A stretch of DNA of 64,000 bases from Naegleria gruberi (Eukaryota). The notes beneath the pieces were generated by a model. That model had not been told where the DNA came from. It worked only from the letters and a program-made list of their open reading frames with translations, and searched no databases. Of this stretch, positions 6,754 through 64,000 are shown piece by piece (the first letter of the stretch is position 1; each line of letters starts with the position of its first letter). The stretch lies in assembly GCA_000004985.1 (NCBI GenBank), contig GG738876.1; one strand, written 5' to 3'. The position numbers and the translations under genes are program-made.

Positions 6754-7016
6754 CTGTTAACTGAGCTATTACTGTACATTATTCTTACAGTAATTTTGTT
6801 GAATACTGTAACTAGTTTGGTGGTCAACATTAATGTTATGGCCATTTATCATTCTCTTTATTTATTAAATATTGGTCAAACCAATGAATTGAAATGCAAT
6901 ACAACTATTCTAATTCAACTCAAAGAGAGATGCCCAATACTACCATTTAAAACTTCTCAATGATATAATAAGGCAAGTAAGAACATGCATCAGAAGTTTT
7001 CAGAGAGAGAAAAAAA

Positions 7017-8804
7017 ATGAAAAGACCCACAACCAGCAAAGTCATTCGACCTCCATCATCATCAAGCATATTGGGAAAGAAATCATACATGACAATTCAT
7101 GTTGGAGAACGAGATTATTACGACTCGTCATCAGATGATTCTCTGATGGTGGTCAAAAAACTTGTTCCCAGTTTAAAGACAAGCCACTCGGCTTCCAATC
7201 TCAGAACCAACAAGTCATCATCCTCAATAGAGGGAAGGCAACTCAATAATATATCCACTCTAAATTCTTCAAGTCCTACCAATACGGGTAAGGATTTAAG
7301 TAGGTCCTCATCTGCATCTGCTCTTTTAAAAATCCCTACATTATCCCTCACTTCTTCTTCTGCCAATAAGATGGTAAAACCTTCTTTTAAAATGTTAACA
7401 CCCGACAATATTATTCATATATTGGGGTATTTTGGGGGAGAATTTCAATCATGTGTATCAAAAGGAAAAATTATTTGGAGTAAATTCTTTAAAACTTGGT
7501 ATGGAAGATTATCGGATGAAACTGTACGTTTATTGTATGTCTATGGAGACTTGACAGAGGCAAAAAATAGCATTGTTGATGAAATTTCATTCCTTTGTGC
7601 TGCCCAACTGCCTTTTGGATCTCACAATTTAGAGATTCCACTCATTAAAAAGTTGTGCTTTTGTCCTTACAAGTTTACAGATACTGAGAAGAAGGTGGCA
7701 ACCATAGTGAGGGAAGCTGATGTTGAATTAAAAAAGAAACTTTTGAGGAGATTGGATAATTTTAAGGTAAAAAATAGATACATTTGTGATAGTCTAAAAA
7801 TTCTAAAATTTAGTCAATTGGAAACATTTTGGGAAGCAATTGAAAAGTGCTTTGAAGTATTTCCAAATTTTGAGGAATTGAGAATTGGCTTTATTCACTG
7901 GGAAACTCCTGATTTTGTAAAATTTATCCCTCGATCATACAATTATAGAGATACGCTAGCGAGTGCACTAGCTAAAAGTAATAGAAAATGCAAAAAAATC
8001 GAGAGTAGAGGTCTAGATCATTTCCTGACACCAAAACTAGCTCAATATTTGCCTCTATTAGAGGAGTACAAAACAGTATATTCTTACTCATCTAAGCACT
8101 TGAAGGATATTGGGATGTGGAAAAATTTGAAAATACTGGATTGTGACTTGAGAGGTTTACAAGGAAGTCAAAAACCATGTAATCACTCCGTTCCAGAATT
8201 TTTCAAATCCCTAGCTCACTGTAAAAAGTTAGAGTGCTTTAGAATGCAAGATGACTGTCTATATGCTGATGAATTCAAACATCTAGCTAATGCTCTCCCC
8301 AATTTAAAATACCTCAACTTGTATAGTACAAAAACAGAACCTGATATTATAGAAACGATTGAAACGTTTACAAGTCTCAAAACTTTGATATTGAGTGAAA
8401 GCTTTGATGATGAGATTGTTTGGTTAGATCGGTTAAACAACATTGATAGTTTGGAATATTTGGAAATAAGTGGTAGTTTGAATTTTTCAAACTTTGTGGA
8501 AGTGTGTAAATTAACATCTCTCAAAACTCTGAGCGTACAAGTAGATATAGGAGATGAAGCTGGCAAACAATTGGCGAACTTGACTAATCTTGAACAATTG
8601 GAATTACAATCCTGCAGAAACTGTAAAAATCCTTTCACCTACGCATTATGTTTATTCTTACAAGACAATTTGAAAAATGTAAAGAGATTTAACATTCAAC
8701 CTCATTATTCAGTCCATGCCTATAACCATATTCCGATTGAAACACTGAAAACTCTGCAGTCCTATATTGTTAAGAAACATATTCTCCCCGATGCTATTCT
8801 ATAA
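7017..8804 (+). CDS. Leucine-rich-repeat protein (F-box/LRR-like), 595 aa
   Basis: C-terminal half is built of LxxLxLxxC/N leucine-rich repeats (LKILDCDLRGL, LKYLNLYST, LKTLILSES, LEYLEISGS, LKTLSVQVD, LEQLELQSC). ATG 7017 in A-rich context. Confidence 0.6.
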   Translation: MKRPTTSKVIRPPSSSSILGKKSYMTIHVGERDYYDSSSDDSLMVVKKLVPSLKTSHSASNLRTNKSSSSIEGRQLNNISTLNSSSPTNTGKDLSRSSSASALLKIPTLSLTSSSANKMVKPSFKMLTPDNIIHILGYFGGEFQSCVSKGKIIWSKFFKTWYGRLSDETVRLLYVYGDLTEAKNSIVDEISFLCAAQLPFGSHNLEIPLIKKLCFCPYKFTDTEKKVATIVREADVELKKKLLRRLDNFKVKNRYICDSLKILKFSQLETFWEAIEKCFEVFPNFEELRIGFIHWETPDFVKFIPRSYNYRDTLASALAKSNRKCKKIESRGLDHFLTPKLAQYLPLLEEYKTVYSYSSKHLKDIGMWKNLKILDCDLRGLQGSQKPCNHSVPEFFKSLAHCKKLECFRMQDDCLYADEFKHLANALPNLKYLNLYSTKTEPDIIETIETFTSLKTLILSESFDDEIVWLDRLNNIDSLEYLEISGSLNFSNFVEVCKLTSLKTLSVQVDIGDEAGKQLANLTNLEQLELQSCRNCKNPFTYALCLFLQDNLKNVKRFNIQPHYSVHAYNHIPIETLKTLQSYIVKKHILPDAIL

Positions 8805-45854: not shown

Positions 45855-47183
45855 ATGAATCATCTTAAACGATTGATTGTTTTGGCTCTTGTAGTTGTAC
45901 TCATGTTTGTCGTCTCACTTTCACATGCTCAAGACGAACAACAGGAAAACAACAATAAGAGACCACCAAGACCTTTACCTTCAGGTAGACCACCAAGACC
46001 ACATCCAGATCATTCTGGAGGGCGACCACCTCGCCCATTCCCATCTGGAGGAAGACCACCACGTCCAGATCATTCAGGAAGAAGACCAAGACCAGATCAT
46101 TCTGGTGAGAGACCACATCCACCAGGTCCACAACCAGATCATTCAGGAAGAAGACCACCAAGACCTGGTCCACATCCTGGTCAATCAGGATTACCACCAC
46201 GTTCTGATGAACAAGATGGTCAAAGTGAAAATAGACCTCGTCCACCAAGACCTCATCCAGAACGTTCAGGTGAAAGACCACATCCAAGACCTTTCCCATC
46301 TGGAGGTAGACCACCAAGACCAGACCACTCAGGAAGAAGACCAGGTCCACATCCAGATCATTCTGGAAGACCACCTCGTCCACATCCAAGACCAGAACCA
46401 TCTTCTGAAGATGACGAACACTCTGATAGACTTGAACAAGGAAACAGACCTCGTCCACCAAGACCAGATCGTTCAGGTTTGCCACCTCGTCCATTCCCAT
46501 CTGGAGGAAGACCACCAAGACCAGATCATTCAGGAAGAAGACCACATCCAAGACCTGAACACTCTGGTGAGAGACCACATCCAAGACCAGCTCACTCTGG
46601 TGAAAGACCACCAAGACCAGATCATTCAGGAAGAAGACCAAGACCAGGTCCACAACCAGACCAATCGGGAAGACCACCTCGTCCTTATCCAGAACATTCT
46701 GGTGAAAGACCAGGCCCACGTCCTCAACCACAAGAATCAACTTCATCCTTAATAGGTGAAAGACCACCAAGACCTGATAGATCTGGAAGACCACCTCGTC
46801 CATTCCCATCTGGAGGCAGACCACCAAGACCAGGCCCATCTGGAGGAAGACCAGGTCCTGGACCAGGTCCACAACCTGATGTTTCATCTGTTGAAGATCC
46901 ACTCATTGATGCTCAAAATAATACCAAGAATGAAATTCCAAATGGACCATCCAATGGTTCTGATGCTTTGGCCATTGTCTTTGGTGTTATTGGTGCAATT
47001 GTTGTCATGGCTGCTATTGCTCTTGTCATTGGAAGTGGAATTGCTGTTTTTGTTTTGAAGAAGAAGGGTTATTCACTCTCATTGAAGAAACATCAAATGT
47101 TGAGAGATGAAGACGAATTTGAATATCCACAACAAGACCAAACTCCAATTTACTCTGTCAATCAACCAGTTGCTCAAAATTAG
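45855..47183 (+). CDS. Type-I membrane-anchored Pro/Arg-rich tandem-repeat protein, 442 aa: signal peptide, ~30 repeats of RPPRP(D/H)HSG(G/E/R), and a C-terminal TM plus short cytoplasmic tail
   Basis: Signal peptide MNHLKRLIVLALVVVLMFVVSLSHA. 27-nt DNA periodicity across 45960..46870. C-terminal TM ALAIVFGVIGAIVVMAAIALVIGSGIAVFVL followed by KKKGY. Overlapping ORFs in other frames and antisense are repeat artefacts. Confidence 0.7.
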   Translation: MNHLKRLIVLALVVVLMFVVSLSHAQDEQQENNNKRPPRPLPSGRPPRPHPDHSGGRPPRPFPSGGRPPRPDHSGRRPRPDHSGERPHPPGPQPDHSGRRPPRPGPHPGQSGLPPRSDEQDGQSENRPRPPRPHPERSGERPHPRPFPSGGRPPRPDHSGRRPGPHPDHSGRPPRPHPRPEPSSEDDEHSDRLEQGNRPRPPRPDRSGLPPRPFPSGGRPPRPDHSGRRPHPRPEHSGERPHPRPAHSGERPPRPDHSGRRPRPGPQPDQSGRPPRPYPEHSGERPGPRPQPQESTSSLIGERPPRPDRSGRPPRPFPSGGRPPRPGPSGGRPGPGPGPQPDVSSVEDPLIDAQNNTKNEIPNGPSNGSDALAIVFGVIGAIVVMAAIALVIGSGIAVFVLKKKGYSLSLKKHQMLRDEDEFEYPQQDQTPIYSVNQPVAQN

Positions 47184-47579
47184 GTTCAATTTAAGTTTTT
47201 CAAAGATTATCGAGCGATAATAACACATTAATTTGCACTACTCTAAAGTGTGCATTCTCTCCTTGTGAGTACAAATTTACAAAATAAATACATTATTTCA
47301 TTGGTAAATTGATTGGTCTGAAAACTTAATTGTAATCTTTCCTTTATTAAAATCTCAAAGTAAAATTCCAACATCATCAATTTAAAAAATTGTCGTTAGA
47401 GCTCCTTCTCTTTGTTCATCATCATCAGTAATAATAATACTTGTGCGTTGAGAAGAATTGTTCTTTTGGTGGATCATCACAATTTGACTTGAGGAATTTA
47501 AATTATCTTTCACAAACAATTCAACGTTTTGATTAAACCTATTGCTTTTTTGTATATTTGTGGAACATTAGGTATTAGG

Positions 47580-49409
47580 ATGAAGAATAGTTATTCCACA
47601 TCAACGAGTGGTGGAATTTTATATAGTTCCGAATTTATTCAAGTTAATTTAGCTGCTGATGCAAAGGGTGATGAAGAAAATGGTTTTCAACCCAAGGCTG
47701 CATGTGTCTCTTGTAGAAAGCTACATCGTCGATGCTCAAAGGAATTTCCGAAATGCTCTGAATGTGTTACTCATCACAGAAAGTGTATTTACATGGATAC
47801 AAAAACAAAAGAAAGAAATCTAGCCTCATCATCATCAACAGATCGCACTACTAGTAGAGATAGTAGGGGTAATAACCAGAATAATAATAACAGCAAACGA
47901 TCAATGAGGAGAGCAGCGTCTACAATTGAAGAACCTCAAATTGCAATCACAGAGGGACTAATTAAGAAAAGTATCAAGAGACAAACGTTCAATGTCTATA
48001 TGGACTTGGTTTGTATGGGACTACCATTCATTACCCCTCAAAATTTTGAAAACATGCTCTTTTCTGAGAATATTCTGAATCAAAACACTAATGCAACCAG
48101 TATTAAGGCATTATTTCTATCAATACAGTCATTGTGTGATCAACGGTTTGGAAGAAGGGATGCTGCTATTGCTGCCTTCAATGAAGCAAAAAGTGAGCTA
48201 CATCAAGTTTTTGAAGATTACGATAACTATCTAAATATTTGTACATATAATAATTTAGCTTACTTTTCTGGTGCTGAGGGAGAGGATCAAATGTCACAAT
48301 GGTTCATGTCACCAGTAGAGTATTACCTATCAAAATATTCTGAATTGAATTTTAATTCCCATAACGAGCTGATAGGACTTGCCTTTGAAAATTTGAACAA
48401 AGGGAGTGGAATAACTAAATTATTTTATTTTGATAATAGATACAAATGGACAAGTCTCACTTTTGGAGATTATATAGGAATACCTTTCAAGTTATCTACT
48501 GGGAAAAGATTACCTCCTGAATTGAAGCAATTGGTGGATCGTGATTTGAATGAAAACACAGCACAAGCTGAGTCAGCAGTTCTTCAATGCATTCTTCAAT
48601 TTATGAAACAACACCATCAAAAGCTTGTGCATTCACCTGGTTTTCTCAACTTGTCTCGCATAGTGGATGTATCTAGTTTTACCAAAACAAGAATAGAATC
48701 ACTCCGAGTACTCTATTCAAAAGCAAATAGCCAAGAAAAGAGAGAGTTATTTTTCAAAGAAATGCTCAATCTTGCAAATACGACTACTGAACTAAGCAAG
48801 GATGATCTATTCCCATACATTTTACCTACCAATATTTTTGGTTTTGCTCTAGCTGCAGAAATTCATTTGGAAGCATTGTCTAATTTTTCTCATTTAGTAT
48901 CTGTTAGCGAAATTTTAGGGCATCTCAAACAAGATTTCCTAGCCCTTACTGTCCTTGCAAGGAAATATGGAAGAGTGCAGAAAGTTTATGGGTACATCTA
49001 TGATGAAATTCAGTCGGTATTGTTAAATAATGGAGTTCCTGCTGAAGAGTTATTGAACCTCATTTCTAATAATTCATTCAAAACACCATCTACCCCTAAA
49101 TTATATCCCCCTATTACTGTAAATAATCAAACCCATACAATTTCTCCCACCAACAACTCAACAGATCAAGTTATAACTTCTGAAAACTCTTCGCCCACTT
49201 CTGAAAATGTATCAAAGAAGAAGGATTTTCCATCGGCAGCTTTTCTTAATAATACGCTTCGTAATTTCAAGAAAACAATTTCCAACCAAGAAATTTGCAC
49301 GATAACTCCTCGAAGTTCTACAACATCAGATAGCCCAATTAATGAGGAAGAAATATCCTGCTTGAAAAATCAAACACTCTCAATACTGCAACAAACATTT
49401 TCAAAATAA
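47580..49409 (+). CDS. Gal4-type Zn(II)2Cys6 binuclear-cluster transcription factor, 609 aa. The track start 47529 is TTG; the first ATG is at 47580.
   Basis: ACVSCRKLHRRCSKEFPKCSECVTHHRKC has exact CX2CX6CX6CX2CX6C spacing near the N-terminus. Confidence 0.75.
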   Translation: MKNSYSTSTSGGILYSSEFIQVNLAADAKGDEENGFQPKAACVSCRKLHRRCSKEFPKCSECVTHHRKCIYMDTKTKERNLASSSSTDRTTSRDSRGNNQNNNNSKRSMRRAASTIEEPQIAITEGLIKKSIKRQTFNVYMDLVCMGLPFITPQNFENMLFSENILNQNTNATSIKALFLSIQSLCDQRFGRRDAAIAAFNEAKSELHQVFEDYDNYLNICTYNNLAYFSGAEGEDQMSQWFMSPVEYYLSKYSELNFNSHNELIGLAFENLNKGSGITKLFYFDNRYKWTSLTFGDYIGIPFKLSTGKRLPPELKQLVDRDLNENTAQAESAVLQCILQFMKQHHQKLVHSPGFLNLSRIVDVSSFTKTRIESLRVLYSKANSQEKRELFFKEMLNLANTTTELSKDDLFPYILPTNIFGFALAAEIHLEALSNFSHLVSVSEILGHLKQDFLALTVLARKYGRVQKVYGYIYDEIQSVLLNNGVPAEELLNLISNNSFKTPSTPKLYPPITVNNQTHTISPTNNSTDQVITSENSSPTSENVSKKKDFPSAAFLNNTLRNFKKTISNQEICTITPRSSTTSDSPINEEEISCLKNQTLSILQQTFSK

Positions 49410-50062: not shown

Positions 50063-52207
50063 ATGCCTGCAACACACTCAAAAGTAGAATTGCCAACCAA
50101 GAGTGATTATTGGCTTGAACAAATGATTCTTGATATGATTCATTCGTTTGATGGACTCACCGCTAGGAAAGTACTCACAAGTAAATATACATACATTGCA
50201 ATTGCACTTGCTGTTGCTGTCAAGTTTGGTTCATCCTACTTGTTAAAAAAGAAGAAGAAGAATTTACCAGCACACAACAAACCACGTTCCTCAAATACAT
50301 CAAAAGATTCCACTTTGAAAAAGTTCTGGAGTTTGGTTAAAATTGGTCTTTTTAATCCAAATGGAGCAGGAAATTCTAGTGCAATGAAATATAAAACAGA
50401 TCCTGCCAATGGAAGAGAAATATGGATTATGGTTGGCCTTGCTTCCCTTGTTATCTTCCAAACATATATTGTTAATAGAAACAACAGTGTCAGTGGTGAC
50501 TTGATGGCTAGTTTAGTTGCCAGAGATTCTGCAACTTGTATTTATAGATTACTCCAAATTACAGGTATTTTAATCTTACAATCTCTGGTCAATCCATCCG
50601 TTACATCACTTATTGAAACACTTGCTTTGAGAATGAGAAAGAATTTGACTATGGATATTCATGATCGTTATTATACAGATATGGTTTACTATAAGATTTT
50701 GAATTTGGATAAGAGAGTTGGTGCTCCAGATCAAAGAATTACTCAAGATGTTGAAGTTTTCTGCAAACAATTCTCTGAATTATTTATGGATCTCTTGAAT
50801 CCAATTGTAGAAGTTTTATTGTATACTTACGAGCTTACTAGATTGATTGGTTCTGGTGGTCCACTCAGTATTATTTCATATGTCGTCATTGCCTTTGGTG
50901 TTTTGGGTATGGTCACACCAAACTTTACAAAGATGTCATCTGAAGTTCAAAATAAGGAAGGTAAATTCAGATCCATTCACAATAGATGTAAGAATAATGC
51001 CGAACTTGTTGCCTTCTATGCTGGTGAAGAAACTGAACGTTTGAAGATTGAAAAACAATTCGAAGAATTGACATCATACAGTGACTATGTCATTAACAAG
51101 AATTTCTTATTCGGTGTTGTTAATGATTACTTTACCAAATATTCTCCTCATGCTGTTACCTCAGTCATTGTTGGTATTCCAGTCTTCTTTGGTAGATTAC
51201 GTCCATTGCCAAAGGACAAACTTATGGGTCAATTGAGATATTTAATCTCTGTTGTTGCATTTGAATTCTTTGCTTTGGGTAAAATCATTGAACTTTTCAG
51301 AAAGATTTTGAAATTGTCAGGTATGACACAACGTGTCCACTTGTTGTATCAAGTCATGGATGAACTCAAGCATGGTAACTCTGATAATGTTAACTTTAAG
51401 TTAAAGTCTGCCAAGGCTGGTGGTTCAGGAGGTGAAATTCTTGAAAGTGATGAAATCAAATTTGACAATGTCATTATCAGAACACCAGATAATATTACAT
51501 TGGCTCGTAATTTATCTTTCAATGTTGGTAAGAATCAACACATTGTTATTACTGGTCCAAATGGAGCTGGTAAATCATCATTGTTTAGAATTTTGGGTTC
51601 TTTGTGGCCTCTTCACAGTGGTATTGTCTACAAACCACAAGCTAAGGGTTCAAATGCTCAAGGTTTGCACAAGGAAATCTTCTACTTACCTCAAAAGCCA
51701 TACAATGTTATTGGATCTCTTCGTAGTCAAATTATCTATCCTGATACGCAATTGAAGGATGGATGGAAAGATTCTAATTTGAAGGAACTTTTGGATGACT
51801 TTAGTATTGGTTATTTGGCAGGACGTCACTCAGATGGATTTGATGGTAAACAAGATTGGGACACCTTGTCAAGAGGTGAACAACAAAAATTGGCCATGGT
51901 TCGTCTTTTCTACCACAAGCCAAAGTATGCCATTTTGGACGAATGTACCTCATGTATTTCTGCCGACTCTGAACAAGAATTATACGGAAGATGTGCCAAG
52001 AATGGTATTACTTGTATCACTATTTCACACAGACCAGCCCTCGAAAAGTATCACACTCAAAGACTTGTTTTCAATGGTATGGGTGGTTGGAAATGGGAAG
52101 CCATTAAGGAATGGACTGAAGAAAGTTCTAGTTATGAAGTTAAGGGTGAAGATAATACATTCCGTGACGATAAGGAAGAGGAAGCTGTTGAAGCAACCAA
52201 AGAATAA
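50063..52207 (+). CDS. Peroxisomal ABC half-transporter, ABCD family (ALDP/PXA-like), 714 aa
   Basis: TMD followed by NBD with Walker A GPNGAGKSS, signature LSRGEQQKLAMVRL, and Walker B AILDECTS. ABCD-typical EAA-like loop. Confidence 0.9.
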   Translation: MPATHSKVELPTKSDYWLEQMILDMIHSFDGLTARKVLTSKYTYIAIALAVAVKFGSSYLLKKKKKNLPAHNKPRSSNTSKDSTLKKFWSLVKIGLFNPNGAGNSSAMKYKTDPANGREIWIMVGLASLVIFQTYIVNRNNSVSGDLMASLVARDSATCIYRLLQITGILILQSLVNPSVTSLIETLALRMRKNLTMDIHDRYYTDMVYYKILNLDKRVGAPDQRITQDVEVFCKQFSELFMDLLNPIVEVLLYTYELTRLIGSGGPLSIISYVVIAFGVLGMVTPNFTKMSSEVQNKEGKFRSIHNRCKNNAELVAFYAGEETERLKIEKQFEELTSYSDYVINKNFLFGVVNDYFTKYSPHAVTSVIVGIPVFFGRLRPLPKDKLMGQLRYLISVVAFEFFALGKIIELFRKILKLSGMTQRVHLLYQVMDELKHGNSDNVNFKLKSAKAGGSGGEILESDEIKFDNVIIRTPDNITLARNLSFNVGKNQHIVITGPNGAGKSSLFRILGSLWPLHSGIVYKPQAKGSNAQGLHKEIFYLPQKPYNVIGSLRSQIIYPDTQLKDGWKDSNLKELLDDFSIGYLAGRHSDGFDGKQDWDTLSRGEQQKLAMVRLFYHKPKYAILDECTSCISADSEQELYGRCAKNGITCITISHRPALEKYHTQRLVFNGMGGWKWEAIKEWTEESSSYEVKGEDNTFRDDKEEEAVEATKE

Positions 52208-52235
52208 CTCGATTCAAAAAATACAATTAAATTAT

Positions 52236-54667
52236 TTATTTCAAATTCTCCAATTCATCGAGTGGGATATCCTCCTCATAAATATCTCGATTTCTCTTCT
52301 TTCCAGTTTCTTCGATTTCCAATGAAAAATCAGCATCAAGAGCAGCATTAGGTGAAGTCAATTGAGCAATTTCATCCTCATCATTTTGTTTTGGAATTGT
52401 CTTAATCTCGAGTAATTTGGTCTTTGGAGCTGCTTGTTGCTTCTTAGGTTTGTGGGTTCTATTATTGAGCTTTGTTTCAACAATCGAAAGCTTGTTTGCA
52501 GTTTCATTCATATGAGAAACAACTCCATTCTTCAAATTTTGTAAATCAGTAACACTAACATTTCTACCAAACGTTTCCTCGCAAGATTTTAACAATGCCT
52601 CTTCTGCTTCCAGACCAGAAGAAGCATTTGTTGATAAAATATTTCCAAATGAGCAAATATATGATTCTAAAACATCTGTCAGCACATTGAGGGCACCTGC
52701 TTTAGCTCCTTCAAATCCTTCATGACATAAAATCATTGATGTAATGCAACTGAGAGCAGAATGTGCATTCTCTTTGGAAAGATTTTGCTCTAACATTTCA
52801 TCTGGGCTCGAACTACTAGCTGAACCTTCAGAGCTTGCACTTACTGCTTTAAGGGGAATGAGAAGGTTCTTTTTCTTTTCTCTTAATTGAATAATCTTAT
52901 CTACATTTTGTTTAACTAGAGTATTGCTTGGCGAATAAATAAATGTGTCATCTTCATTGGAAATGGATGAGATTTGTTTCTTTCCTGGTGGTGGTGGACT
53001 TGTTGGCTCTCTACTCATTTGCAATGTTTGCAATAAATTATTACTTCCACTATTGCAAGAATTTTTGAGAATAGTTTGGGCCAAGTTCTGAAGTTTTGGT
53101 TCCTGTTGAGCTTTGTGAGATTGGCTATATATTTTCTTAATGGTTGACACATCTCGTAATCCCAATTTATATCCTAGATTGGAAATTATACTTAATTGTT
53201 GTTTTGCAAAATCTTTTGAGTTGTTTCGTGTTGCTATCGATGTTAAATGTGAATTTGAGAGACTTTCACCATAATCTGGCAATGTCTCATCATATGTATA
53301 TTCTGGGAAAATACATCTACTATTACTACTTAGGTTTTCAAAATAGAATGAGCTTAGAGAGTTCTCGTGGATACATTTTTGAGTTGATTTTTCTCCTCTT
53401 AGTTTCTTTTTAAATTATTGTTAAAATTCAAATAAGCTATATTCAAACTTACTAATTTTGGAAGTCTAACTTGTGCTGTTGATAAATTCCATCTTTCTTC
53501 CCTGTCGAAAATATCTACATTTTTAATTTCTTTTTGATTCTCTTGTTGAATTTTTTCCTTCAAATCTAAATAAATATCCAAATCCTTTGATGGAAGTATT
53601 TCTACAGTATTTACCTTTTGAGCCATCTCTGTATCAATTATATTCCAAGAATCTGGATCTGAATCCTTATCCTGTAAAGTGCTGAGTTTTATCTTTTTTC
53701 TTGGCTTTGATGTTGATGGCACAGTTGGTGTTTGTTCAGATTCAGAATCAGACATTGGTAATACCATAGAGCTGGCATCTTGCATTTTGGAGAGAGCATC
53801 CAATTTTTCCTCGTCATAGATAGCATTTATAGATGTTGTAGGATTATATAAATTAGAAATGATCATTTGATCAATTTGATTATACTTGTAGAGATCCACA
53901 ATATTTGTATTTTCATCATTTTGCAAATGCATATTTTCTAATAAATCCCTATCTTTTTCCAATGTGTGAAATTCACTCATTTGGAAATATGGCAATAAAG
54001 AAATGTCATCATCGTACAATACATGATTTGTTACAAATGAATCGTATAAAATTGATCTCAATCTCAAAGATAATTCCATAATTAAATTATGTGACACTTC
54101 TCCAGAGGCTTGATTATTGTTCCAGAAATTACCAAATGTATCCTTATTCACAGTAACTTGTTGATACAATTTATACAATTTATCATTGCTAGCTTGTTGA
54201 AAAATGTTGGAAATCTTCTTTTTAGGAGATCGATCCAATTCTTGAACAAGTGAAAACCACTGATCAGATGATGATGTTTGTAGCATACAAGGAGAACAAC
54301 AAGAAGACGAAGTAGGTGAATAATCAGATGGTGATACAACAGCTCTCCTTCCTCCAACAACAATACCTCCCGACGATGATAACAGTGGTGTATTATTATT
54401 ACCAGGCTTTCTCTTTCTTCGTGTATTTGGTGTTTTCAATTGTGTATTATTATTATTACTAATGCTGCTACTACCACAACTCGTTGAAGATGGTGGAGTA
54501 TTATTTCCACCTCCTTGTTGTTGTTGCAATGTTGTAGTACCATGAATACCACTTGTATTGACCGTCAGTTGATGCTGTTGCTGTTGTTGCTGAAGTAAAG
54601 AAGAAGCTTCGCCAACTTCTTTGCCCGTTATTATTGTTGGTGTTGCTTCATGTAAATGGTTGGGCAT
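52236..54667 (-). CDS. Q-rich nuclear protein with C-terminal BTP/histone-fold (TAF8/TAF3-like) domain, two exons: join(54667..53453, 53405..52236)
   Basis: Track ORF 53399..54694 starts on TTG and 52236..53282 also starts on TTG. The downstream frame is open for 133 codons upstream of its first ATG, so it is exon sequence. A perfect GTAAGT donor lies at 53452 after ...RLPKL. The acceptor aaaaag at 53406 gives a 47-nt intron; an 89-nt alternative ends ...ccacgag at 53364. Histone-fold ALSCITSMILCHEGFEGAKAGALNVLTDVLESYICSFG. Confidence 0.5.
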
Positions 54668-54989
54668 TTTTTGGAAATGATAGGTTGGCGCCAAATAATA
54701 TTTTCCTTTTCTCTTCTTGCTTCTTGTGATGGTGATGATGAATTAATTGTCATCATATTGAACAAGAGGATAGATATAATTTGATATGTATGTTAGGAAG
54801 ATGGTTGCTGAAGAAGAATTTTAATGTGAGGATTTGAATTTTGAGTTTTTTGCTTCACCTTCAAGAGAGAAGGTTCTTCATTGAAAAATTAAAGTTAAAA
54901 AAATGTATTGCAATAGTATGTAGGAGATGTTTTTGAAGATTGTTCTAATGTGTTGTGTTATTAATCCTTGTTGTTGTTTGTATTGTGTG

Positions 54990-56499
54990 ATGCGGATTCT
55001 AGTTAGTGAAACAGCACCACTTCATCCTGTAATTTCTAAAAAGACTGGACACTTGTTTGAAAAGAGTTTGATCTTAAAGTATATTGAAGAACACGGAAAG
55101 TGTCCAATTACTGGACAAGATTTAACTCCTAATGATTTAATTGATGTAATTTGTAGGTATCGGATCTTTAATTTCTCTCATCATTGATCATCTTGTATTA
55201 TTGTTCATCTGAATAATTGTTTTAATAGATAAGAAAGGCACTGAATCATCGGTGAAGCCTAGTCAAGCTATTGCCAGTATTCCAAGCATGTTACAAACAT
55301 TCCAAAATGAATGGGACTCTGTAATGTTGGAAACTTTTACTTTGAGACAACAATTGGATAAATCAAGAAAGGAACTTTCACACTCACTTTATCAACATGA
55401 TGCTGCTTGCAGAGTTATTGCAAGATTAATGAAGGATAATGATGACACAAAGAGTATTCTCAGAAAAAATCAAAATAATATGGAAGATGAAACTTCTAAT
55501 ACTCTCTCAGAGACTGTTTCAGAAAGACTTACAAATACTGCAGAAATTCTCTCATCAAATAGAAAACAAAGAACTATTTCACCATCTCTTAAATCACCAG
55601 AGGAAATGTCAAATTCCAACACTCGTTTGTTAAATAGTGAATACAGACTCCATCAAGGAAAGGGTATTCAATCCATTGACGTTTTAAATTCATTGATTTT
55701 AACTGGAGGTAGAGATGGATCAATTTCAGTTTTTGATAAGCAATATAATACTTGTATTGGAGAGTTGAATTCTAATTCTGGACCTGTAAATTGTGCCATT
55801 TTCCACAATACTCCTGAATTTGCCTTTTCAAGTCACAATAGAGATGTTAAAATATGGTCTCTTAAGGATTCTACCTGTCTTCACACTATGGAAAAACTTC
55901 ATTTGGAACGTGTTACTGGACTTGCCTTGCATCAATCTGGTCACTACTTCTTGACATCATCTCTCGATCAGACATGGTCTTTCTGTGAAATTGAAACTGG
56001 AACTAGTTTGTTAAAGAGTAGCAATGATGAATCAGGATATACTTGTATTCAATTCCATCCAGATGGTTTATTATTTGGTACTGGTCTTCAAAATAATGCT
56101 GTAAAGATTTGGGACGTCAAGTCTCAACAAGTAGCTGCTACATTACAAGGACACTCTGGAGAAGTTACCTCACTTTCATTCTCTGAAAATGGTTACTATC
56201 TCGCTTCTTCATCAAAGGATAAGACTGTTCGTATTTGGGATTTAAGAAAAGTGGTACCTCTGCACACATTGCAATTCAATTCACCAGTTAGCAATGCTTC
56301 CTTCGACTATTCTGGTATTTATCTAGGTGCAACCTGTACTGATGGTACTGTTGGAGTTTATCAAGCTAAGGTTTGGACTGAACTCATTAATACAACAGTT
56401 CCAAACACCTGTTCTCCATCAAGCATTCGCTTTGGACCTAATGCTAGTTTTATTGCTGTTTCCGGATTGGAGGACAGCACTTTGCGATTCATTGAATAA
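54990..56499 (+). CDS. PRP19: Pre-mRNA-processing factor 19 (U-box + WD40 E3 ligase), two exons: join(54990..55145, 55234..56499)
   Basis: Exon 1 carries the U-box (PVISKKTGHLFEKSLILKYIEEHGKCPITGQDLTPNDLID). An 88-nt intron runs GTAATT...ttttaatagataag. Exon 2 carries SIPSMLQTFQNEWDSVMLETFTLRQQL...LSHSLYQHDAACRVIARL, almost identical to the human PRP19 coiled-coil start, followed by seven WD repeats. Alternative donor GTAGGT at 55153 with acceptor at 55228. Confidence 0.8.
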
Positions 56500-56559
56500 A
56501 AAGAAATTGTAAAGTAAACGAATTTAACACGAACTTCGAGATCAAAAAACAAGAAAAAA

Positions 56560-57478
56560 ATGGGTGTAGACGTTACCGTGCTAATGGTCAATCTGGACCA
56601 ATTTGAAGATTTGGGTATGCATCTACTTTTTTACTTTATTATTTAATACTTTGTAAATAGCTGAGAAACTTGTCTCCGATGAAACAGAAGATCCATCTTC
56701 CTACAAACAAGATTTGTTAGAATTAGATAGCAGATTTTATATTAACAGTTTCCGCTTGAGAGCTGCCGGTGAATTAGCAAAATTTGCAGCTAAATTCGGA
56801 TTATCAGAAACTTGGTCTGATTCAACCCAATTAGATGAATTGTTGTGTAGTATTGGCACATTTAGACAAGACAGTACAATCATACTAACTCAGGAAAACT
56901 CTGATGAAGTGGAGGAATATGTTGAATTTCCTAACTTGATTGAGTTGGGAGAAGCTTACCAATCAGTTGCAGAGTACACTTTCACATTCATTCATCCACT
57001 TTTGATTGCAGAATTGAGTGCTCATTTCGAACATCAAAATAGCATTCCTATTGAATTATTGGAAAAAGTATTCGAAAATGAATATGAAGAATATGTTCGT
57101 CCAAAGAAATTGAGAAAACCAAATTCCAATGAAGAAAGCATCGATGGAATAAGAGAATGGTTAAGCCATAATGATGAATATGTATTCTTCACCAATATCC
57201 TATTGTATTACAATACACCTGAACGTGTCTTTTCTCTTTTGGAAAAACCAAAAATTGGAAAGGAAAAAGTGAAAAATATTTTACAACCACTGCTGATGAA
57301 ATTTGAAGATATTGCAGATGAATATTGGATTTTAATTATGGAATTTATTGAAGATCCATTTTCATTGACAAGATTTGGAATGGCTCATTCGAAATTCTAC
57401 AATATTCTTTGTAAGAATCGAAAAGAATGGTATGCAGAATTCAAAAGAAATATTGGATTATTCTCATACCTGAGCTAA
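56560..57478 (+). CDS. Hypothetical protein, two exons: join(56560..56614, 56661..57478), ~290 aa
   Basis: ATG 56560 in the context aagaaaaaaATG. A 46-nt intron (GTATGC...tttgtaaatag) joins MGVDVTVLMVNLDQFEDL to AEKLVSDETEDPSSYKQDLLELDSRFYINSFRL... The long frame is open upstream of its first ATG (56714), which supports the join. Confidence 0.4.
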
Positions 57479-57593
57479 TTACCCTTCAAATGTTCTTCAC
57501 ATTGTACGAATTAGTTCTTGTTTTGCTAGATCATTAAATTTATTAAAGCATTCTCTAATAATTTGTAAGAAAGTATTCAATTAATTTAAAAAG

Positions 57594-58338
57594 AGTTCCA
57601 GCAATGTATGTTGCTAATCAAGCTGTATTGGCATTGTATTCATCTGGAAAGACTAATGGAATGGTTATGGATTCAAGAGATGGAATTACACATGCTGTTC
57701 CAATTAATGATGGATTTGCCGTTTCAGATGCAATTGTGAGTTTAGAATTGGCAGGCAGTGACATTACTGATTGTTTAATGGAAATGTTGAAGGGGAAAGG
57801 GTTTCCTCAACTCCAATCCTTAACAAACGAAAGAAGAATCTTTAGAGATATTAAGGAGAAGCACTGTTATATTTCTCTTGATTTCAATACTGAAATGGTA
57901 AATGAAACATCTTTATCTATTCAAAGAGAATATGAACTACCAGATGGGTCTATCATTCCAATTGATAAAGAACGATTCAAATGCACAGAAGTTCTTTTCC
58001 AACCAAATTTGATGGAATTAGAATGTGCCTCCATTCATGAAACTATTCTCAGCTCAATTGGTAAATGTAATATTGAAATGAGAAAGAATTTGTTCAGTAA
58101 CATTCATATATCAGGTGGAAATACAATGTTTGAGGGAATTTCTGAACTATTGACCAAGGAACTGACTGCACTAGCTCCATCTGCAATGAATGTTAAGATT
58201 ATTGCTCCTCCTAAGAGGAAATATTCTGTTTGGATTGGTGGTTCGATTCTTGCGAGTTTTATTGAACATGATATGTGGCTTTCGAAAGAGAATTATGAAG
58301 AATTTGGATATGAAGTTGTTCATAGAAAGTGTTATTGA
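57594..58338 (+). pseudogene. Actin/actin-related protein, C-terminal two-thirds only, equivalent to actin residues ~130-375. The N-terminal exons are missing or unresolved.
   Basis: MYVANQAVLALYSSGKTNGMVMDSRDGITHAVPI...KYSVWIGGSILASF...HRKCY is ~55-60% identical to actin by inspection. Conservation continues 4 codons upstream of the ATG (RVPAMYVA vs actin NVPAMYVA), ending at an AG (57592-93). The upstream gene ends only 115 bp away, leaving no room for ~130 N-terminal codons. Confidence 0.55.
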
Positions 58339-58720
58339 GTTCAGTATTCTTCTTGCTGGAATACTATTGATCACCATTCAGAGATGTCAGATGCGAAGAA
58401 CGCAGAAGTGTTTGTTGTTTGTAAAAATTATTACGGAAATATTTACTGAAATTTGTTTTAGTTATTCGAAAGAAATGCATTTACGAATCCACAAAGATGC
58501 ATCATCATATCTTAAAGGATAATAATGCCGATCCAGTAGGGCGGCAATCCTCTTATTTCTAACAATTTGTACGAAACCAAGTTGAAATTGTAGAATCTTG
58601 TTTGTAAATGGAAAGAGATGGTATTTTACAAATTAATTTAAACTGTCCCTAGTACGTACATTTTGTTTGAAATGATTGAAAGAAAGTAAGAGTAAAGGGT
58701 TTATTAATCATTCAAAAAGA

Positions 58721-60520
58721 ATGTCAACAATACTTTCGAATAGTTTATTCATCATTACTTTACTCTTGCTTGTTGTTTCGAATAGTTACCAATCAACCAA
58801 CAACAGCAACTTGACAACCGTTACTTCATTCTACTACCCACAATACGAATGTCTCAAACACACTCCAGTCAACCAATTCTACTATCCTTTCATGTTCACT
58901 CTCGATACTCCCTTCTATGATTATTGTAAATTGCCAACGATTGGAAATGCACCACAAGATTTCTATAAGGACTCTCAATTGATCAGTTCATTATTGGATG
59001 GTTCATTCTCTTGTGTTGATTTCCTGTGTTCCAATGACAAGGAATGGAACCTTTCGAATAAGACTCAGCTCACTACACTTGGAGTCATGTGGAATTATTG
59101 TTTTTATTGTAATACTGAGGGAAGAAATTCATCATCAATTAATTCGACAAGTGAAATATTTAGAGAAAAACTAATGTTGGGTCAATGTGATGCATTTTCA
59201 ATTGCAAATTCATCGTTGAATTTCTTGGAGAATTTCAATCGAGTTTCGAATAGGCATTGTAATGGAGATAGCTATGTGGAGAGACGTCATTTACCATTCC
59301 TTGAATATTACTTTTTCCAAACAGATTACTTTATCAATTCGTTTGCTAGATATAGAAAGAATAATTTCAATGAAGTTTATTCTGATGCAAAGACTTACAT
59401 TTCCAAAGTTAAACTTCAATCCATTCTCACCTTTTATTTTAAAGATTTATTCGAAAGGTCAACACTTGATTCAGCCCCTCTCAACATTCCAGTTTCATGT
59501 TGGTGTGATTATGGATCTAGCTCCAAAACCATTGGTTTTCAATGCTACGATTATTATCAGGGATGGCAATTATTATGTACCTATAGAATATGTGTTGTGA
59601 TATTTACTCTATTATATGGCAGTTGTTCATTGTTTTATTCATTGGTTTTGGTGGTACCGAGAATTGTGGAGAGAATTTCCTCATTCAAACAGAGAAATGA
59701 TATTAGATTAATGGAAACTAATTGTAAGAAACCTCTCTATTTCATTAGACATTTTTTAGATATTGTAACACAACCTCCAATTTTCTTTACATTATCTGCA
59801 TTCTTTGGAATGTTGGAAAACTGTTTCAGATTTCTATTTAATTTTAGTGTTTTTAATGGATTTTTCAATTCTTTCTATTCGGGAATTTTTAGATCGATTT
59901 CAATTGGTTTGGCATGTTGTGGATATTCTGCATTGGTTATTTCATGGGCTCATGTGATTGATTTGGCAAAGAGAAAGACATCCTCTGCTCCCTTTTCAAG
60001 TCAATTGTCAAAATTGAATGTTGTAATCTTGACAATTTGTTACATTGGCATGTTAATATCAGGAATTGTGAGTGCAATCATTTTGATTGTTGTGAAGAAC
60101 TCATCTACTGGTTATATCTTCTTGACAGTTGCTGTACTGATCTATCTCTTTACATTTGTAGTTGGCTTTGCATTTTATGGAATCAAGATTTTACTTTCCC
60201 TCAGAAAAACCTCAGATACTAGCTCAATTATTGAGTATCGTTTCACCAAATTCATTCTATTAGAAACGGTCTTCTTCCTTATTGGTTGGATTGTTTCACT
60301 CTTCATGTTAGTTTCGTACGTGTTTGGTTTCGATTCGATGGGACTTTTCTGGGGACTCAATAGAAATATTTTCATGGATACCATGTTGAATGCAGTTTCC
60401 ATTCTCTCATGTTACATTACTTTCAATAGGAATGCATTCGAAATGGTGTATGGAAAGAAGTTTCTTTCATTGTGTTCATGTGAAAAGAATAATGATACTA
60501 CAAGTGATAATAAACAATAA
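58721..60520 (+). CDS. Orphan seven-transmembrane receptor with ~290-aa Cys-rich N-glycosylated ectodomain, 599 aa. The track start 58676 is TTG; the real ATG is at 58721.
   Basis: Signal peptide MSTILSNSLFIITLLLLVVSNS. About 16 ectodomain Cys with NxS/T sites. Seven hydrophobic helices between residues ~300 and 585. Short C-terminal tail. Confidence 0.6.
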   Translation: MSTILSNSLFIITLLLLVVSNSYQSTNNSNLTTVTSFYYPQYECLKHTPVNQFYYPFMFTLDTPFYDYCKLPTIGNAPQDFYKDSQLISSLLDGSFSCVDFLCSNDKEWNLSNKTQLTTLGVMWNYCFYCNTEGRNSSSINSTSEIFREKLMLGQCDAFSIANSSLNFLENFNRVSNRHCNGDSYVERRHLPFLEYYFFQTDYFINSFARYRKNNFNEVYSDAKTYISKVKLQSILTFYFKDLFERSTLDSAPLNIPVSCWCDYGSSSKTIGFQCYDYYQGWQLLCTYRICVVIFTLLYGSCSLFYSLVLVVPRIVERISSFKQRNDIRLMETNCKKPLYFIRHFLDIVTQPPIFFTLSAFFGMLENCFRFLFNFSVFNGFFNSFYSGIFRSISIGLACCGYSALVISWAHVIDLAKRKTSSAPFSSQLSKLNVVILTICYIGMLISGIVSAIILIVVKNSSTGYIFLTVAVLIYLFTFVVGFAFYGIKILLSLRKTSDTSSIIEYRFTKFILLETVFFLIGWIVSLFMLVSYVFGFDSMGLFWGLNRNIFMDTMLNAVSILSCYITFNRNAFEMVYGKKFLSLCSCEKNNDTTSDNKQ

Positions 60521-61011
60521 TGTGATTGGTAAAGGATTGAATATTCTTGATCTCTGTTTCAATTTTCGTTCAAACTTGCACCTCATCTCCCATTTTCCTT
60601 GAAATTCAATTGTTCGGAGATGAGTGGGAGTTATTAATTGAAAATTCCGCAGTAGTAAGCACAATCTGTTCACAAGTCCATTACTTCTCCTCATGAAATC
60701 ATCAATTAATATTGAAAATTATTTGGATGTAGATATTGCAATTTCCTTCGTGTTCTCCATCTTTATTTCTCTGTGCATTATCAAAAACTACACACAGGTG
60801 CGCCCAATGATTGATCAATATTGAACCTTTTTTCATTCCTCCCACACGTGTGTGCTCCCTATCAATCATTAAGAGCATCAACATGATCCATTCAACAAAT
60901 GCAAGAGAGGCTCTCTTGAAAATTTTGGCGCGCAACTAAAATCTATGTGATTGTGTATTTGAGACTGATGGGAAGATGCTTTGAAAAAATATCTTTTTAA
61001 AATAATTTTAA

Positions 61012-64000
61012 ATAAATTATTGTTGAAGAAAATTGATTCTAGAAAAAATGTCTTCGTACGGAACGCACGGCGATGGTGGAGATGGGTTGGAATCGAGTAA
61101 ACAACTCAATGTGCTCCAAAAGATTGCTAGAAATAGAGTGGTGAATATTGTTGGTGCGATAATATTATCAATTATTTTATTATTGAGTATTGGATGTTGT
61201 GTTGTTGTTGGTGTGCTTCATTCACATTTGCTTTTCCAATGTGGATTTGCTGAATTTATATTTATGTTACTTCTTGAAGGCGCTACATTCTTCTTCTGTA
61301 TTTATCACTTGTACAATATTTACAAGTTTTTCAAGACTAGAGCACGACACTCTGGTAAGAAGGGAATTTCCGCTATTGTTGCTGCTTTATGTTCATCAGA
61401 AGTAAATCAATACAATGCATATTCTGATTCCAGACAAGGAAATGAAGAAGATGATTTTGATGATGAAGAAGATGATGAAGATGACGAAGAAGAGGAGGAA
61501 GAAGAAAGCAAATTTTCCAAGTTTGTTGTCGGCTTTTTGAAGATTGCTGCCAATGCTATTGCTGTTTTATGTTTCATCATTTTGGTACTTTTCACAGTTG
61601 TTGTCGTTCCATTGCAACAACAAACCTACCCAACTTATAACGGTACTCTTAAACTTCCAAAGTTTACACCAAAGGGATCTTCTGCTCCTACAATTTCACG
61701 TGAAAGTAATGGTGTTGTTCACATCAAGGCTTCACACGATTATGATTTATATTTCGCACAAGGTGTAGCTGTTGCTCAAGATCGTTTGTGGCAATTGGAA
61801 TTTAATCGTAGATTGTCAAATGGTATTTTGGCTGAAGTTGCTGGTGCTGATGCTGTCAATGTTGACAGTTGGTTCAGAACTCTCGGATTTGCTCGTTCTG
61901 CTGCCAACATTTTACCAACCATTGATGCTGAAACTCTTTCATTCATTCAAGCATATTGTGATGGTATTAACTCTTATATTAATAGTAATCCACCACTTCA
62001 ACCTGAATTTGTTCTCCTCAACACTAAACCAGTTGAATGGACTCCAAGTGATGTTATTGCTTATATGAAGTTTGTTTCATTCTCTCTTTCTGATAATATG
62101 GAAAAGGAAGTTTGGAGATTCAAGATGATGCAAAGAAATATCACAAAGGACAGAGTTAACGAATTGGTTCCTTTCTACCCAACTGATATGCCAACTATTT
62201 TGAGTTTGGAAGAAATGAATTTGCAAAACGTTCCAGTTGAAGAAAGAGAAAAGATTGAAAAGGCTCAACAAGATGATTCTGCTGCTTTTATTCCAAAGGC
62301 TATTCACAATTTGACCATGTCTGTCATGGAAGAAATGTTCGCTTCATTGGAAGAATCTGGTGAATGGGGTAAACAAGCTGTCAGATCAGTTTTGAAGGGT
62401 ATGGTTGCTCCAGATATCACTGGTAACAAGGCCTCAAACAATTGGGTTCTCGGAACCAAGATTACAGCAAACAATGGATCATTGTTGGCTAACGATCCTC
62501 ATTTGGATTTGACTGCTCCAGGTATTTGGTATTTGGCTCATTTGGAAGGTCCAACTCACAATGTTATTGGTTCTACTTTTGTTGGTCTTCCAGGTATTGT
62601 TATTGGTAAGAATGATTTCATTTCATGGGGTGTTACTACTGGTCTTGTTGATGCTCAAGATTTGTACGTCATGTCCGAAGTTGAAGAAGGTAAAACTTAC
62701 AACTACAATGGTAAAGTTCTCCAATATGAAACTCGTACCGAAACTATTAATGTTAAGGGAGCTGCTGCCAAGACTATTACTGTTAAGGAATCTGTCTACG
62801 GTCCAGTTATTAATGACCACTACCAAGTTGATGGTAACGTTTTGTGTTTGAAGTCTTTGACTACCTACACTAATGATACCACACTCCAAGCTTTCCTCAA
62901 GTTGAACAGAGAAGCTAAGGATTGGAACTCATTTGTTGATGTTGTCTCCTTGTTCGTTTCCCCATCCCAAAACTTTGTCTTTGCTGACAAGAGTGGTAAC
63001 ATTGGTTACTATTTGGCTGGTTTGGTTCCAATTAGAAAGGAAGGTCACAATGGTAGATTCCCAGTTATTGGTGATGGTAGCTATGATTGGCAAGGATTTA
63101 TTCCAGCTGCTGAAAAGCCAAGCGTTTACAATCCAAAGAAGGATTACATTGCTTCTGCAAACAACAGAGTTACTCCTGTTGGTTACAAGTACAGTATTAC
63201 CCAAGATTGGTACTCTTTCTATAGAGCTAGCAGAATTGTCTCATTGATTGAAACTGCTATTGAAAAGGGAACTCCACTCAATTTTGAATACATGAAGAAG
63301 ATGCAACACGACGTTCACTCACCAGTCTTTGATCAATTCAAGTTTGTTTTTGAAGCTATTCCAAAGTTCAGAAATCTCACTGAAAATAAGGAAAAGTTGA
63401 GAGAAAAGTTGATTAATTGGGACGGTGATGAAATTTTGTACTCTCAATCTGCTTCCATCTTTGAAATGTGGTACAAGATTATGGGTAACCTCACCAAGGT
63501 TGAAACTGTCAATAGATGGTCTTTCGGTCCATATCTTTACAATGCCTTGAAGAATGGTGATAGTGCTTGTGAAAATTATCACAACACTACTTGTATGTTG
63601 TTCGCTATTGACAGCTTTGAAAATGCCATTGATGCTCTTGAAGCCACTTACGGTTCTATTCCATTGTGGGGTTCTGATATTCACGAATCTGAATTCCCTA
63701 ACCCGGTAATGGATAATACTGTTCTCAAATGTTTGGCTGGAGCTACTCGTACTACTGTTGGTGGTTCTTCAACCATTAATGTTGGTGAAACTCAATATCC
63801 TGCCCTCAATTCAAGATGGGGTGTTTCTTATAGACAAGTTGTTGATTGGCGAGGCAATCAAGCTTCATTCATCATTCCACTCGGTCAATCTGGTAACTTC
63901 TTATCTCCTCTTTACACCAACTTGTTAGAAATGTGGTCTGACCCAACTGGTCAATACTTGGACATGAAATCTGCTGGTTACACTGCAACCAATACCCTTT
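61012..64000 (+). CDS. Penicillin amidase / acyl-homoserine-lactone acylase family (Ntn-hydrolase, MEROPS S45-like) protein. It has N-terminal TM helices and a poly-acidic linker, is partial (runs off the 3' end of the window), and has an unresolved 5' end.
   Basis: Frame open from 61012 to the window end. Family motifs: DYDLYFAQGVAVAQDRLWQLEF, the nucleophile/processing site KASNNWVLG (cf. E. coli PGA beta-subunit SNMWVIG), and LANDPHLDL. Three hydrophobic helices and EEDDFDDEEDDEDDEEEEEEE precede the catalytic domain. ATG 61049 is in a different frame and hits a stop at ~61138. Confidence 0.75.

Follow-up and report, generated by a model that had tools for sequence, protein, structure and literature searches.

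A penicillin-acylase-family hydrolase of Naegleria gruberi with a predicted three-helix membrane anchor

We analysed a 64,000-nucleotide stretch of Naegleria gruberi DNA (contig GG738876.1, assembly GCA_000004985.1; hereafter the window), which ends within a gene for an acylase of the S45/penicillin-acylase family of N-terminal nucleophile (Ntn) hydrolases. Membership of the acylase in this family is secure. Taken as a whole, the explanation that we favour, and to which we give slightly better than even chances, is that the acylase is a membrane-anchored S45 amidase of protists acting on aliphatic N-acyl substrates, and that the gene for a seven-transmembrane (7TM) protein beside it is a neighbour by chance. 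This explanation draws on the observed family, catalytic residues and fold, on the conservation of the N-terminal module and the phylogenetic placement, and on an adjacency of the two genes that is not conserved.

The acylase gene and its catalytic residues

The acylase matched the Pfam profile PF01804 (Penicil_amidase) with E=8.4e-180 and 600.5 bits, against a cut-off of 21.3; the match extends over amino acids (aa) 215-974 and covers profile positions 3-667 of 675. An earlier note on this DNA, written from the letters alone, had described an intact penicillin-acylase-type Ntn hydrolase and quoted three motifs, all of which are present: DRLWQ (aa 245-249), ASNNWVLG (aa 462-469) and NDPHL (aa 482-486). 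The description holds, as both the nucleophile and the oxyanion residues are kept. Ser463, the Ser of SNNW, is the counterpart of residue 1, the Ser nucleophile, of the beta chain of E. coli penicillin G acylase (PGA) in a gap-free alignment, which also yields the following equivalences.

E. coli PGA beta Gln23, catalytic helper: N. gruberi His485
E. coli PGA beta Asp73 and Asp76, Ca2+ ligands: N. gruberi Asp535 and Asp538
E. coli PGA beta Asn241, oxyanion hole: N. gruberi Asn705

Arg726 and Arg729 correspond to two Arg residues that occur family-wide. Over 127 aligned homologues S463, N464, H485, N705, R726 and R729 were invariant, with D535 and D538 close to it; every catalytic residue is retained in the orthologues, which are at 73%, 55% and 41-45% identity.

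The AlphaFold2 (AF2) model of the acylase, made with 120 homologues, had a mean predicted local distance difference test score (pLDDT) of 87.6, with values >90 over most of the catalytic domain. Foldseek returned TM-scores of 0.86 for the beta chain of a class III cephalosporin acylase (4HSR_B), 0.78 for the D-succinylase of Cupriavidus sp. P4-10-C (7EBY), ~0.73 for PGA and ~0.70-0.72 for MacQ and PvdQ, two acylases that act on N-acyl-homoserine lactones (AHLs). Sequence comparison with the PDB matched the D-succinylase (4e-57), PGA beta (~1e-37) and PvdQ (2e-8), and cephalosporin acylases as well. Among solved structures the D-succinylase is the best match by sequence and by fold (Foldseek E 4e-45). 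This bacterial enzyme is soluble, however, the identity is 23-24%, and its specificity for N-succinyl-D-amino acids is not transferable. The PGAs of E. coli and Kluyvera (1PNK, 1GK9, 1E3A; S45) have the same fold at ~22% identity and conserve in position Ser-beta1, Asn-beta241 and the Ca2+-binding Asp-beta73 and Asp-beta76. They differ in being soluble and periplasmic, with a cleaved signal peptide, and in carrying Gln-beta23, Phe-beta24 and Phe-beta57 where the Naegleria enzyme has His485, Leu486 and Ile519.

Both predicted proteins, the acylase and its 7TM neighbour, are 100% identical to N. gruberi entries at NCBI, and the window is Naegleria gruberi nuclear DNA. The acylase start had previously been placed at 61012, upstream of an in-frame TGA (61024-61026); the open reading frame (ORF) opens downstream of this stop, and from the ATG at 61048 it is uninterrupted to the end of the window. 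The full-length protein has 989 residues. Its NCBI counterpart, 'penicillin amidase [Naegleria gruberi]', extends 5 residues past the window (…TNTLSLSSQ), so that only the final 5 codons and the stop lie outside. This NCBI model comprises 917 residues and begins at an internal Met73, within the second transmembrane helix (TM2), so that residues 1-72 are missing. An N-terminus of the longer form (MSSYGTH / MSGYGTH / MTTYGT…) is kept in N. fowleri, Willaertia magna and five metagenomic orthologues, and its conservation indicates that the true start is 61048. The orthologues are collinear throughout, from the N-terminal MSSYGTH onwards, and therefore no intron is needed. The public annotation hides, at 61048-61263 of the window, the whole of TM1 and half of the hairpin that it forms with TM2.

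61048..64000, plus strand: acylase coding sequence, intronless, cut by the window end, 984 of 989 codons (ORF, Pfam and NCBI match)
61660..62202, plus strand: alpha-subunit-like region, ~aa 205-385, including AQDRLWQLE; matches PGA and cephalosporin-acylase alpha chains, pLDDT >90
62203..62433, plus strand: linker/spacer, ~aa 386-462, ending at the predicted scissile Ala462/Ser463 bond (alignment and AF2); its boundary with the alpha region (~aa 385/386) is approximate
62434..64000, plus strand: beta-subunit region from the nucleophile Ser463 (62434-62436), by alignment to E. coli PGA beta

Autoproteolytic self-processing at Ala462/Ser463 is most likely, judging from the sequence. The ~40 residues that precede Ser463 (aa ~421-460) have low pLDDT (~51-59), as expected of a spacer peptide. 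The A/S pair at the scissile site is common to the acylase and a Thermaceae-type bacterial sister group described below, whereas most other sampled bacterial groups have G/S. The precursor would cleave itself at this bond and free the N-terminal Ser463 as nucleophile. Ser463 would be helped by His485, Asn705 and Arg726/729, with a structural Ca2+ site at Asp535/Asp538, and the mature enzyme would hydrolyse the amide bond of N-acylated small molecules.

The predicted anchor and its cysteines

Hydropathy and AF2 agree on three hydrophobic helices in the acylase (aa ~34-58, ~67-89 and ~160-190; AF2 helices 30-62, 67-101 and 155-191), arranged in the order TM1-TM2-acidic loop-TM3-catalytic domain. 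The parts of the triple-TM anchor and acidic linker proposed in the earlier note are therefore all present, but their order is different: the acidic tract lies between TM2 and TM3, probably on the cytosolic side, and so does not form an extracellular stalk.

61048..61146, plus strand: N-terminal segment, aa 1-33, predicted cytosolic; conserved in orthologues, net charge +3 before TM1
61147..61314, plus strand: two-helix hairpin of TM1 (aa 34-58), turn SHLLFQCG and TM2 (aa 67-89), by hydropathy and AF2
61315..61524, plus strand: loop, aa 90-159, predicted cytosolic from charge and AF2; basic stretch KFFKTRARHSGKK, then a poly-Asp/Glu tract
61525..61617, plus strand: TM3, aa 160-190, signal-anchor; aligns with the lone hydrophobic segment of bacterial homologues, AF2 helix 155-191

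The poly-Asp/Glu tract consists of 22 residues (aa 132-153; 61441-61506) and is conserved in close orthologues; the loop that contains it is disordered in the AF2 model (pLDDT <50). TM2 carries a buried Glu (LLLEG). Among 13 homologues, C65 of the hairpin turn was invariant and H60, L61 and L62 nearly so. Net charge is +3 before TM1, 0 at the turn and +5 in the 15 residues after TM2. Read by the positive-inside rule, these charges most likely put the N-terminus and the loop in the cytosol, and the turn and the catalytic domain on the exoplasmic side. The exoplasmic position of the catalytic domain is also suggested by its 8 N-x-S/T sequons, by the pair Cys841/Cys849 and by the match of TM3 to the N-terminal segment of bacterial homologues, and it agrees with the earlier placement of this domain on the cell surface or in the lumen. 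The acylase would accordingly be made as a polytopic membrane precursor with a cytosolic N-terminus. The TM1/TM2 hairpin would expose its short turn to the lumen or the outside, the basic/acidic loop would return to the cytosol, and the TM3 signal-anchor would put the ~800-residue catalytic domain in the secretory/endolysosomal lumen or on the cell surface.

In Thermus thermophilus, experiments have shown that an uncleaved N-terminal signal-anchor fixes the enzyme to the cytoplasmic membrane, on its outer face (PMC3461476). TM3 matches the signal-anchor segment of Thermus-type enzymes, and membrane anchoring as such was therefore probably inherited from the bacterial ancestor type. None of the bacterial homologues examined has the N-terminal module, and the clade-specific novelties in the sequences are the hairpin and the predicted cytosolic loop. 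We found no description of a three-helix anchor architecture for Ntn hydrolases in the literature retrieved.

Nearly every full-length member of the eukaryote-type clade follows the same N-terminal plan: a hairpin whose turn holds the Cys of an 'L-C' motif, then a long loop of low complexity, then the signal-anchor. The catalytic domain has only three conserved Cys columns, Cys841, Cys849 (both found in bacteria too) and Cys895. Of the eukaryote-type clade, 97% carry Cys895 (63730-63732), against 0% of bacterial sequences, where Arg is usual. The beta chain thus holds a clade-specific unpaired Cys, and the predicted exoplasmic turn holds another clade-specific Cys (Cys65, codon 61240-61242); the two are therefore a candidate inter-domain disulfide. 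We offer, as a hypothesis only, that a Cys65-Cys895 bond would hold the beta chain at the membrane once self-cleavage has taken place. Its fuller form, in which a signal-anchored bacterial acylase became a covalently tethered two-chain enzyme acting on membrane-partitioning bacterial amides, is speculative and, on present evidence, unlikely. If it were true, both chains would stay on the membrane with the active site at the phagosomal or cell-surface membrane, and acyl chains would be stripped from lipopeptide toxins or long-chain AHLs.

Bacterial relatives, ancestry and likely substrates

Our first homologue search recovered full-length orthologues from N. fowleri (73% identity), Willaertia (55%) and metagenomes (41-45%), together with a divergent N. 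fowleri paralogue and a EukProt transcript, and then bacterial proteins at ~30-33% identity. Searching with a profile of the divergent long sequences added ~20 further homologues of 950-1190 residues and a closer bacterial group, at ~41% identity, from Meiothermus, Oceanithermus, Rubrobacter and cyanobacteria. This group displaced the Xanthomonas-type proteins (~33% identity) that had been candidates for the nearest bacteria. In line with the earlier note, which called such enzymes rare in eukaryotes, the family is rare among named eukaryotes. Penicillin amidase genes have been noted in Acanthamoeba, N. fowleri and a diplonemid, and horizontal gene transfer was proposed for the diplonemid (bioRxiv 10.64898/2026.01.29.702485). 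The N. fowleri paralogue, at 1236 residues, has a low-complexity N-terminal extension of ~280 residues and then the same hairpin (…KHNHLLFVCG…); no N. gruberi counterpart of it was among the search results.

Contigs of four metagenomic members were inspected, and on all of them the acylase gene is surrounded by genes of eukaryotic type. The neighbours were a STAG cohesin gene and synaptobrevin in one case, CENP-C, an IFT57-kinase and Ras in a second, and Snf7, a phosphodiesterase and ankyrin proteins in a third. A further metagenomic cluster comprises acylase fragments of 116-232 residues on ~410-kb contigs, some labelled 'PvdQ', which look like exons of an intron-rich eukaryotic gene split by a prokaryotic gene caller.

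The long sequences grouped together in each of our neighbour-joining (NJ) trees, as follows.

First data set, clade of 16 long sequences: NJ bootstrap 99/100
Second data set, clade of 33 long sequences: NJ bootstrap 57/60
33 long sequences as one clade, with 18 bacterial sequences of named phyla added: NJ bootstrap 36/40
33-member clade with the Thermus/Meiothermus/Oceanithermus, Rubrobacter and cyanobacterial group: NJ bootstrap 60/60 and 40/40

A Thermus sp. sequence was placed within the sister group in the tree with added bacteria. The closest bacterial clade sampled comprises Thermaceae, Rubrobacter and cyanobacterial enzymes and, judging from a Thermus sp. homologue, probably the penicillin acylase of T. 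thermophilus HB27 (TthPAC); its identity over the aligned columns is ~41%. These enzymes share with the Naegleria acylase the Ala/Ser site, the hydrophobic segment matching TM3 and an aliphatic pocket, and the Thermus enzyme itself is Ca2+-dependent and self-processing. The Naegleria acylase differs from them in ~160 extra N-terminal residues, which form the hairpin with its turn Cys and the basic/acidic loop, and in Cys895, its N-glycosylation sequons and a longer linker.

Bacterial ancestry of the acylase is well supported by these comparisons, and the donor can be named as a 'Thermaceae-like group' at most in present sampling. The earlier note had put the gene forward as a candidate for horizontal transfer. 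The bacterial sister group that this predicts was recovered (NJ 100%), but a recent or Naegleria-specific transfer did not stand. The proposed compositional comparison came out negative for recent transfer and shows a native gene, with G+C at third codon positions (GC3) of 0.31 against 0.24-0.33 in neighbouring genes and a correlation of relative synonymous codon usage (RSCU) with the neighbours of 0.86. The transfer is old, predating the divergence of Naegleria and Willaertia and probably that of a wider set of protists; orthologues are spread over Heterolobosea and are also found on further eukaryotic contigs. The acylase itself is an ordinary, already annotated member of a well-known enzyme family, and its identification as such adds little; the protist acylases are one old clade sharing the predicted three-helix anchor, and this anchor is a modest new variant.

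The acyl-pocket positions of PGA beta-Phe24 and beta-Phe57 are occupied by Leu486 and Ile519, residues shared by most members of the clade and of the bacterial sister group. TthPAC prefers octanoyl-penicillin (penicillin K) and works best at acidic pH; C4- and C8-homoserine lactones (HSLs) were not cleaved, longer AHLs being untried there (PMC3461476). Given an aliphatic pocket and a nearest clade of Thermus type, medium-chain aliphatic N-acyl amides are the likeliest substrates. Candidates that would be met in bacterivory include lipopeptides, acyl-penicillin-like compounds and possibly long-chain AHLs. An exoplasmic acylase could serve digestion or detoxification in phagosomes, or act at the surface. 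Mass spectrometry has picked up a homologue from N. fowleri both in extracellular vesicles and in an immunogenic fraction of ~100 kDa, and the proteomic tables list a 'penicillin amidase homolog' fragment, Q25548 (PMC7350353, PMC9312180). A transcript of the Willaertia acylase was detected at a low level (PMC7285305).

Several points weigh against this account of a membrane-anchored amidase with aliphatic substrates. Topology, self-processing, location and substrate class are all inferred for the eukaryotic acylases, and the topology rests on hydropathy and charge rules. The Leu/Ile pocket is common to most aligned bacterial homologues, and excludes little beyond a 'PGA-like aromatic' specificity. 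Our trees are neighbour-joining trees on identity-based distances, not maximum likelihood, and TthPAC stands outside the alignment, its membership of the sister clade being drawn from a 62%-identical Thermus sp. homologue. Finally, the N. fowleri proteomic lists also hold many cytosolic proteins, and the detections may concern the paralogue.

Two narrower readings of the acylase by itself make more specific claims about its substrate. The acylase might be an AHL acylase that degrades long-chain AHLs of prey bacteria, at the surface or in phagosomes. Promiscuity towards AHLs is known for many S45 enzymes, among them those of PGA type and 'group B' members such as Smlt1522, the aliphatic pocket residues would suit acyl chains, and a predicted exoplasmic location fits contact with bacteria. 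The AHL acylases (PvdQ, MacQ, QuiP, HacB and Smlt1522) have the superfamily, the fold and a broad acyl-amide chemistry in common with the Naegleria enzyme, at a distant sequence relationship. However, the acylase scored 47.7 bits on the PvdQ equivalog model NCBIfam NF051460 against a cut-off of 950, the PvdQ match in the PDB (2e-8) is much weaker than those of PGA or the D-succinylase, and TthPAC, assigned to the sister clade through its homologue, was inactive on C4- and C8-HSL. The affiliation with PvdQ and AHL acylases suggested in the earlier note is thus weak. We consider a dedicated AHL acylase quite unlikely; by analogy with family members, AHL cleavage is possible as a sub-case of an aliphatic N-acyl amidase.

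The second reading sees a defensive deacylase, directed against acylated bacterial or fungal toxins (cyclic lipopeptides, aliphatic penicillins) aimed at grazing amoebae. Relatives in the family deacylate penicillins, cephalosporins and lipopeptides, the preference of TthPAC for penicillin K would fit, and the gene is conserved in bacterivorous amoebae. On the other side, beta-lactams have no target in amoebae, and the lipopeptide-acylase branch (aculeacin/PvdQ type) is more distant. A primarily defensive role therefore seems to us as improbable as a dedicated AHL acylase, and we retain the broader aliphatic N-acyl amidase as the preferred explanation.

The 7TM neighbour and the surrounding genes

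The gene upstream of the acylase encodes an orphan Cys-rich protein with a predicted GPCR-like (G-protein-coupled-receptor-like) seven-helix fold, much as the earlier note had described, with its coordinates exact.

58721..60520, plus strand: orphan 7TM gene, ATG to TAA, 599 residues; identical to an NCBI 'predicted protein'
58721-58780, plus strand: signal peptide of this gene, aa 1-20
58781-59551, plus strand: Cys-rich, N-glycosylatable ectodomain, aa 21-277
59552-60421, plus strand: seven-helix domain, aa 278-567, by hydropathy and AF2
60422-60517, plus strand: C-terminal tail
60521..61047, no strand: intergenic spacer of 527 bp separating the two same-strand genes, by sequence inspection

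Seven helices follow the signal peptide in both hydropathy and AF2, as expected of a protein with an extracellular N-terminus, and the ectodomain of ~257 residues has 10 invariant Cys and 7 N-x-S/T sites. The AF2 model predicts a GPCR-like seven-helix fold at low confidence (pLDDT 56.6). Unlike GPCRs, the protein has no sequence match to any Pfam GPCR family, and nothing meaningful was found in Pfam or NCBIfam for the protein itself, for 6 homologues (E up to 10) or for 10 distant profile relatives. Word-based searches found homologues in Naegleria species and Willaertia only; an exhaustive profile search gave 79 cluster representatives at E≤1e-3. A lineage-restricted orphan GPCR-like protein with a Cys-rich ectodomain is a fair description of the modelled product, and its role as a receptor is putative. 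In both N. fowleri and N. lovaniensis the family is represented by several paralogues, and two of those in N. fowleri (FDP41_010320 and FDP41_010319) have consecutive locus tags on one 988,549 bp contig and are probably adjacent.

We compared the gene order around the acylase among relatives. An ABC_membrane_2 gene, a bromodomain gene (minus strand) and Prp19 occur in this order upstream of the acylase in N. gruberi (50063-56499) and N. fowleri (351-7558). In N. fowleri the order continues from the ABC transporter, bromodomain gene and Prp19 through a gene for a 621-residue leucine-rich repeat (LRR) protein to the acylase. This slot gene was considered as a homologue of the 7TM gene and rejected as an unrelated LRR gene (BLASTP E>1). 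The stretch between Prp19 and the acylase has thus been replaced between the two species. The acylase of Willaertia has a ubiquitin-conjugating enzyme gene upstream and an MFS (major facilitator superfamily)/hemerythrin gene downstream, and that of a metagenomic relative lies next to cohesin and synaptobrevin genes. In N. fowleri and Willaertia the 7TM homologues occupy different contigs from the acylase, and a distance of 8 kb around them holds no acylase gene.

These comparisons bear on the suggestion, made in the earlier note, that an ecto-acylase and the 7TM receptor beside it work as a pair in prey sensing or quorum quenching. In such a model the acylase would cleave AHLs or beta-lactam-like amides, and the receptor would sense its substrate or product. 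Both genes are real, 527 bp separate them on the same strand, large exoplasmic domains are predicted for both products, and the predicted 7TM fold is GPCR-like. Nevertheless, the adjacency is lost in N. fowleri despite the flanking synteny and is absent in Willaertia and the metagenomic relative, the 7TM homologues lie elsewhere with no acylase nearby, and the acylase clade occurs on many contigs without such a neighbour. Moreover, Naegleria is gene-dense, and tandem neighbours are expected by chance. A functional module of this kind is very improbable. The adjacency is specific to N. gruberi, and in its compact genome the two genes are best read as chance neighbours; the upstream gene would be an unrelated, lineage-restricted GPCR-like protein that happens to lie next door.

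That the acylase is a bacterial contaminant, or a very recent and possibly non-functional horizontal acquisition, has in its favour a family that is overwhelmingly bacterial, but is already refuted by synteny and conservation: the gene is flanked by eukaryotic genes, within a block that shows synteny with N. fowleri, its GC3 and codon usage are native, and orthologues keep the catalytic residues and an N-terminal module missing from the bacterial homologues examined, so that contamination is excluded and a recent acquisition next to impossible.

Further upstream, an ORF at 57604-58338 has a Pfam Actin match (E=8e-69) that covers profile positions 126-409 only and so lacks actin's N-terminal third. 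The ORF just before it (56714-57478, 254 residues) had no Pfam match. The region 56714-58338 may represent an actin-related gene that is split by an intron or fused, or else a truncated copy; the slot of these ORFs is taken by the LRR gene in N. fowleri. Rfam and tRNA scans found no RNA genes or tRNAs in 56000-64000, the spacer 60521..61047 included, and minus-strand ORFs of the region are short and nested within coding frames. Elsewhere in the window, local G+C peaks at 0.41 at 46001-48000, against 0.30-0.39 in all other 2-kb blocks.

Our analyses indicate that a signalling module of acylase and receptor is not worth pursuing on genomic grounds. The public N. gruberi acylase model should gain 72 residues, as the current version conceals the membrane anchor. 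The three-helix anchor and the conserved clade-specific Cys pair predict a disulfide tether, which is simply testable. The nearest bacterial clade is membrane-anchored, and the preference of its Thermus enzyme for aliphatic acyl chains narrows the substrates worth assaying. With an N. fowleri homologue detected among vesicle proteins and in an immunogenic fraction, an exposed catalytic domain may be of interest for work on this pathogen.

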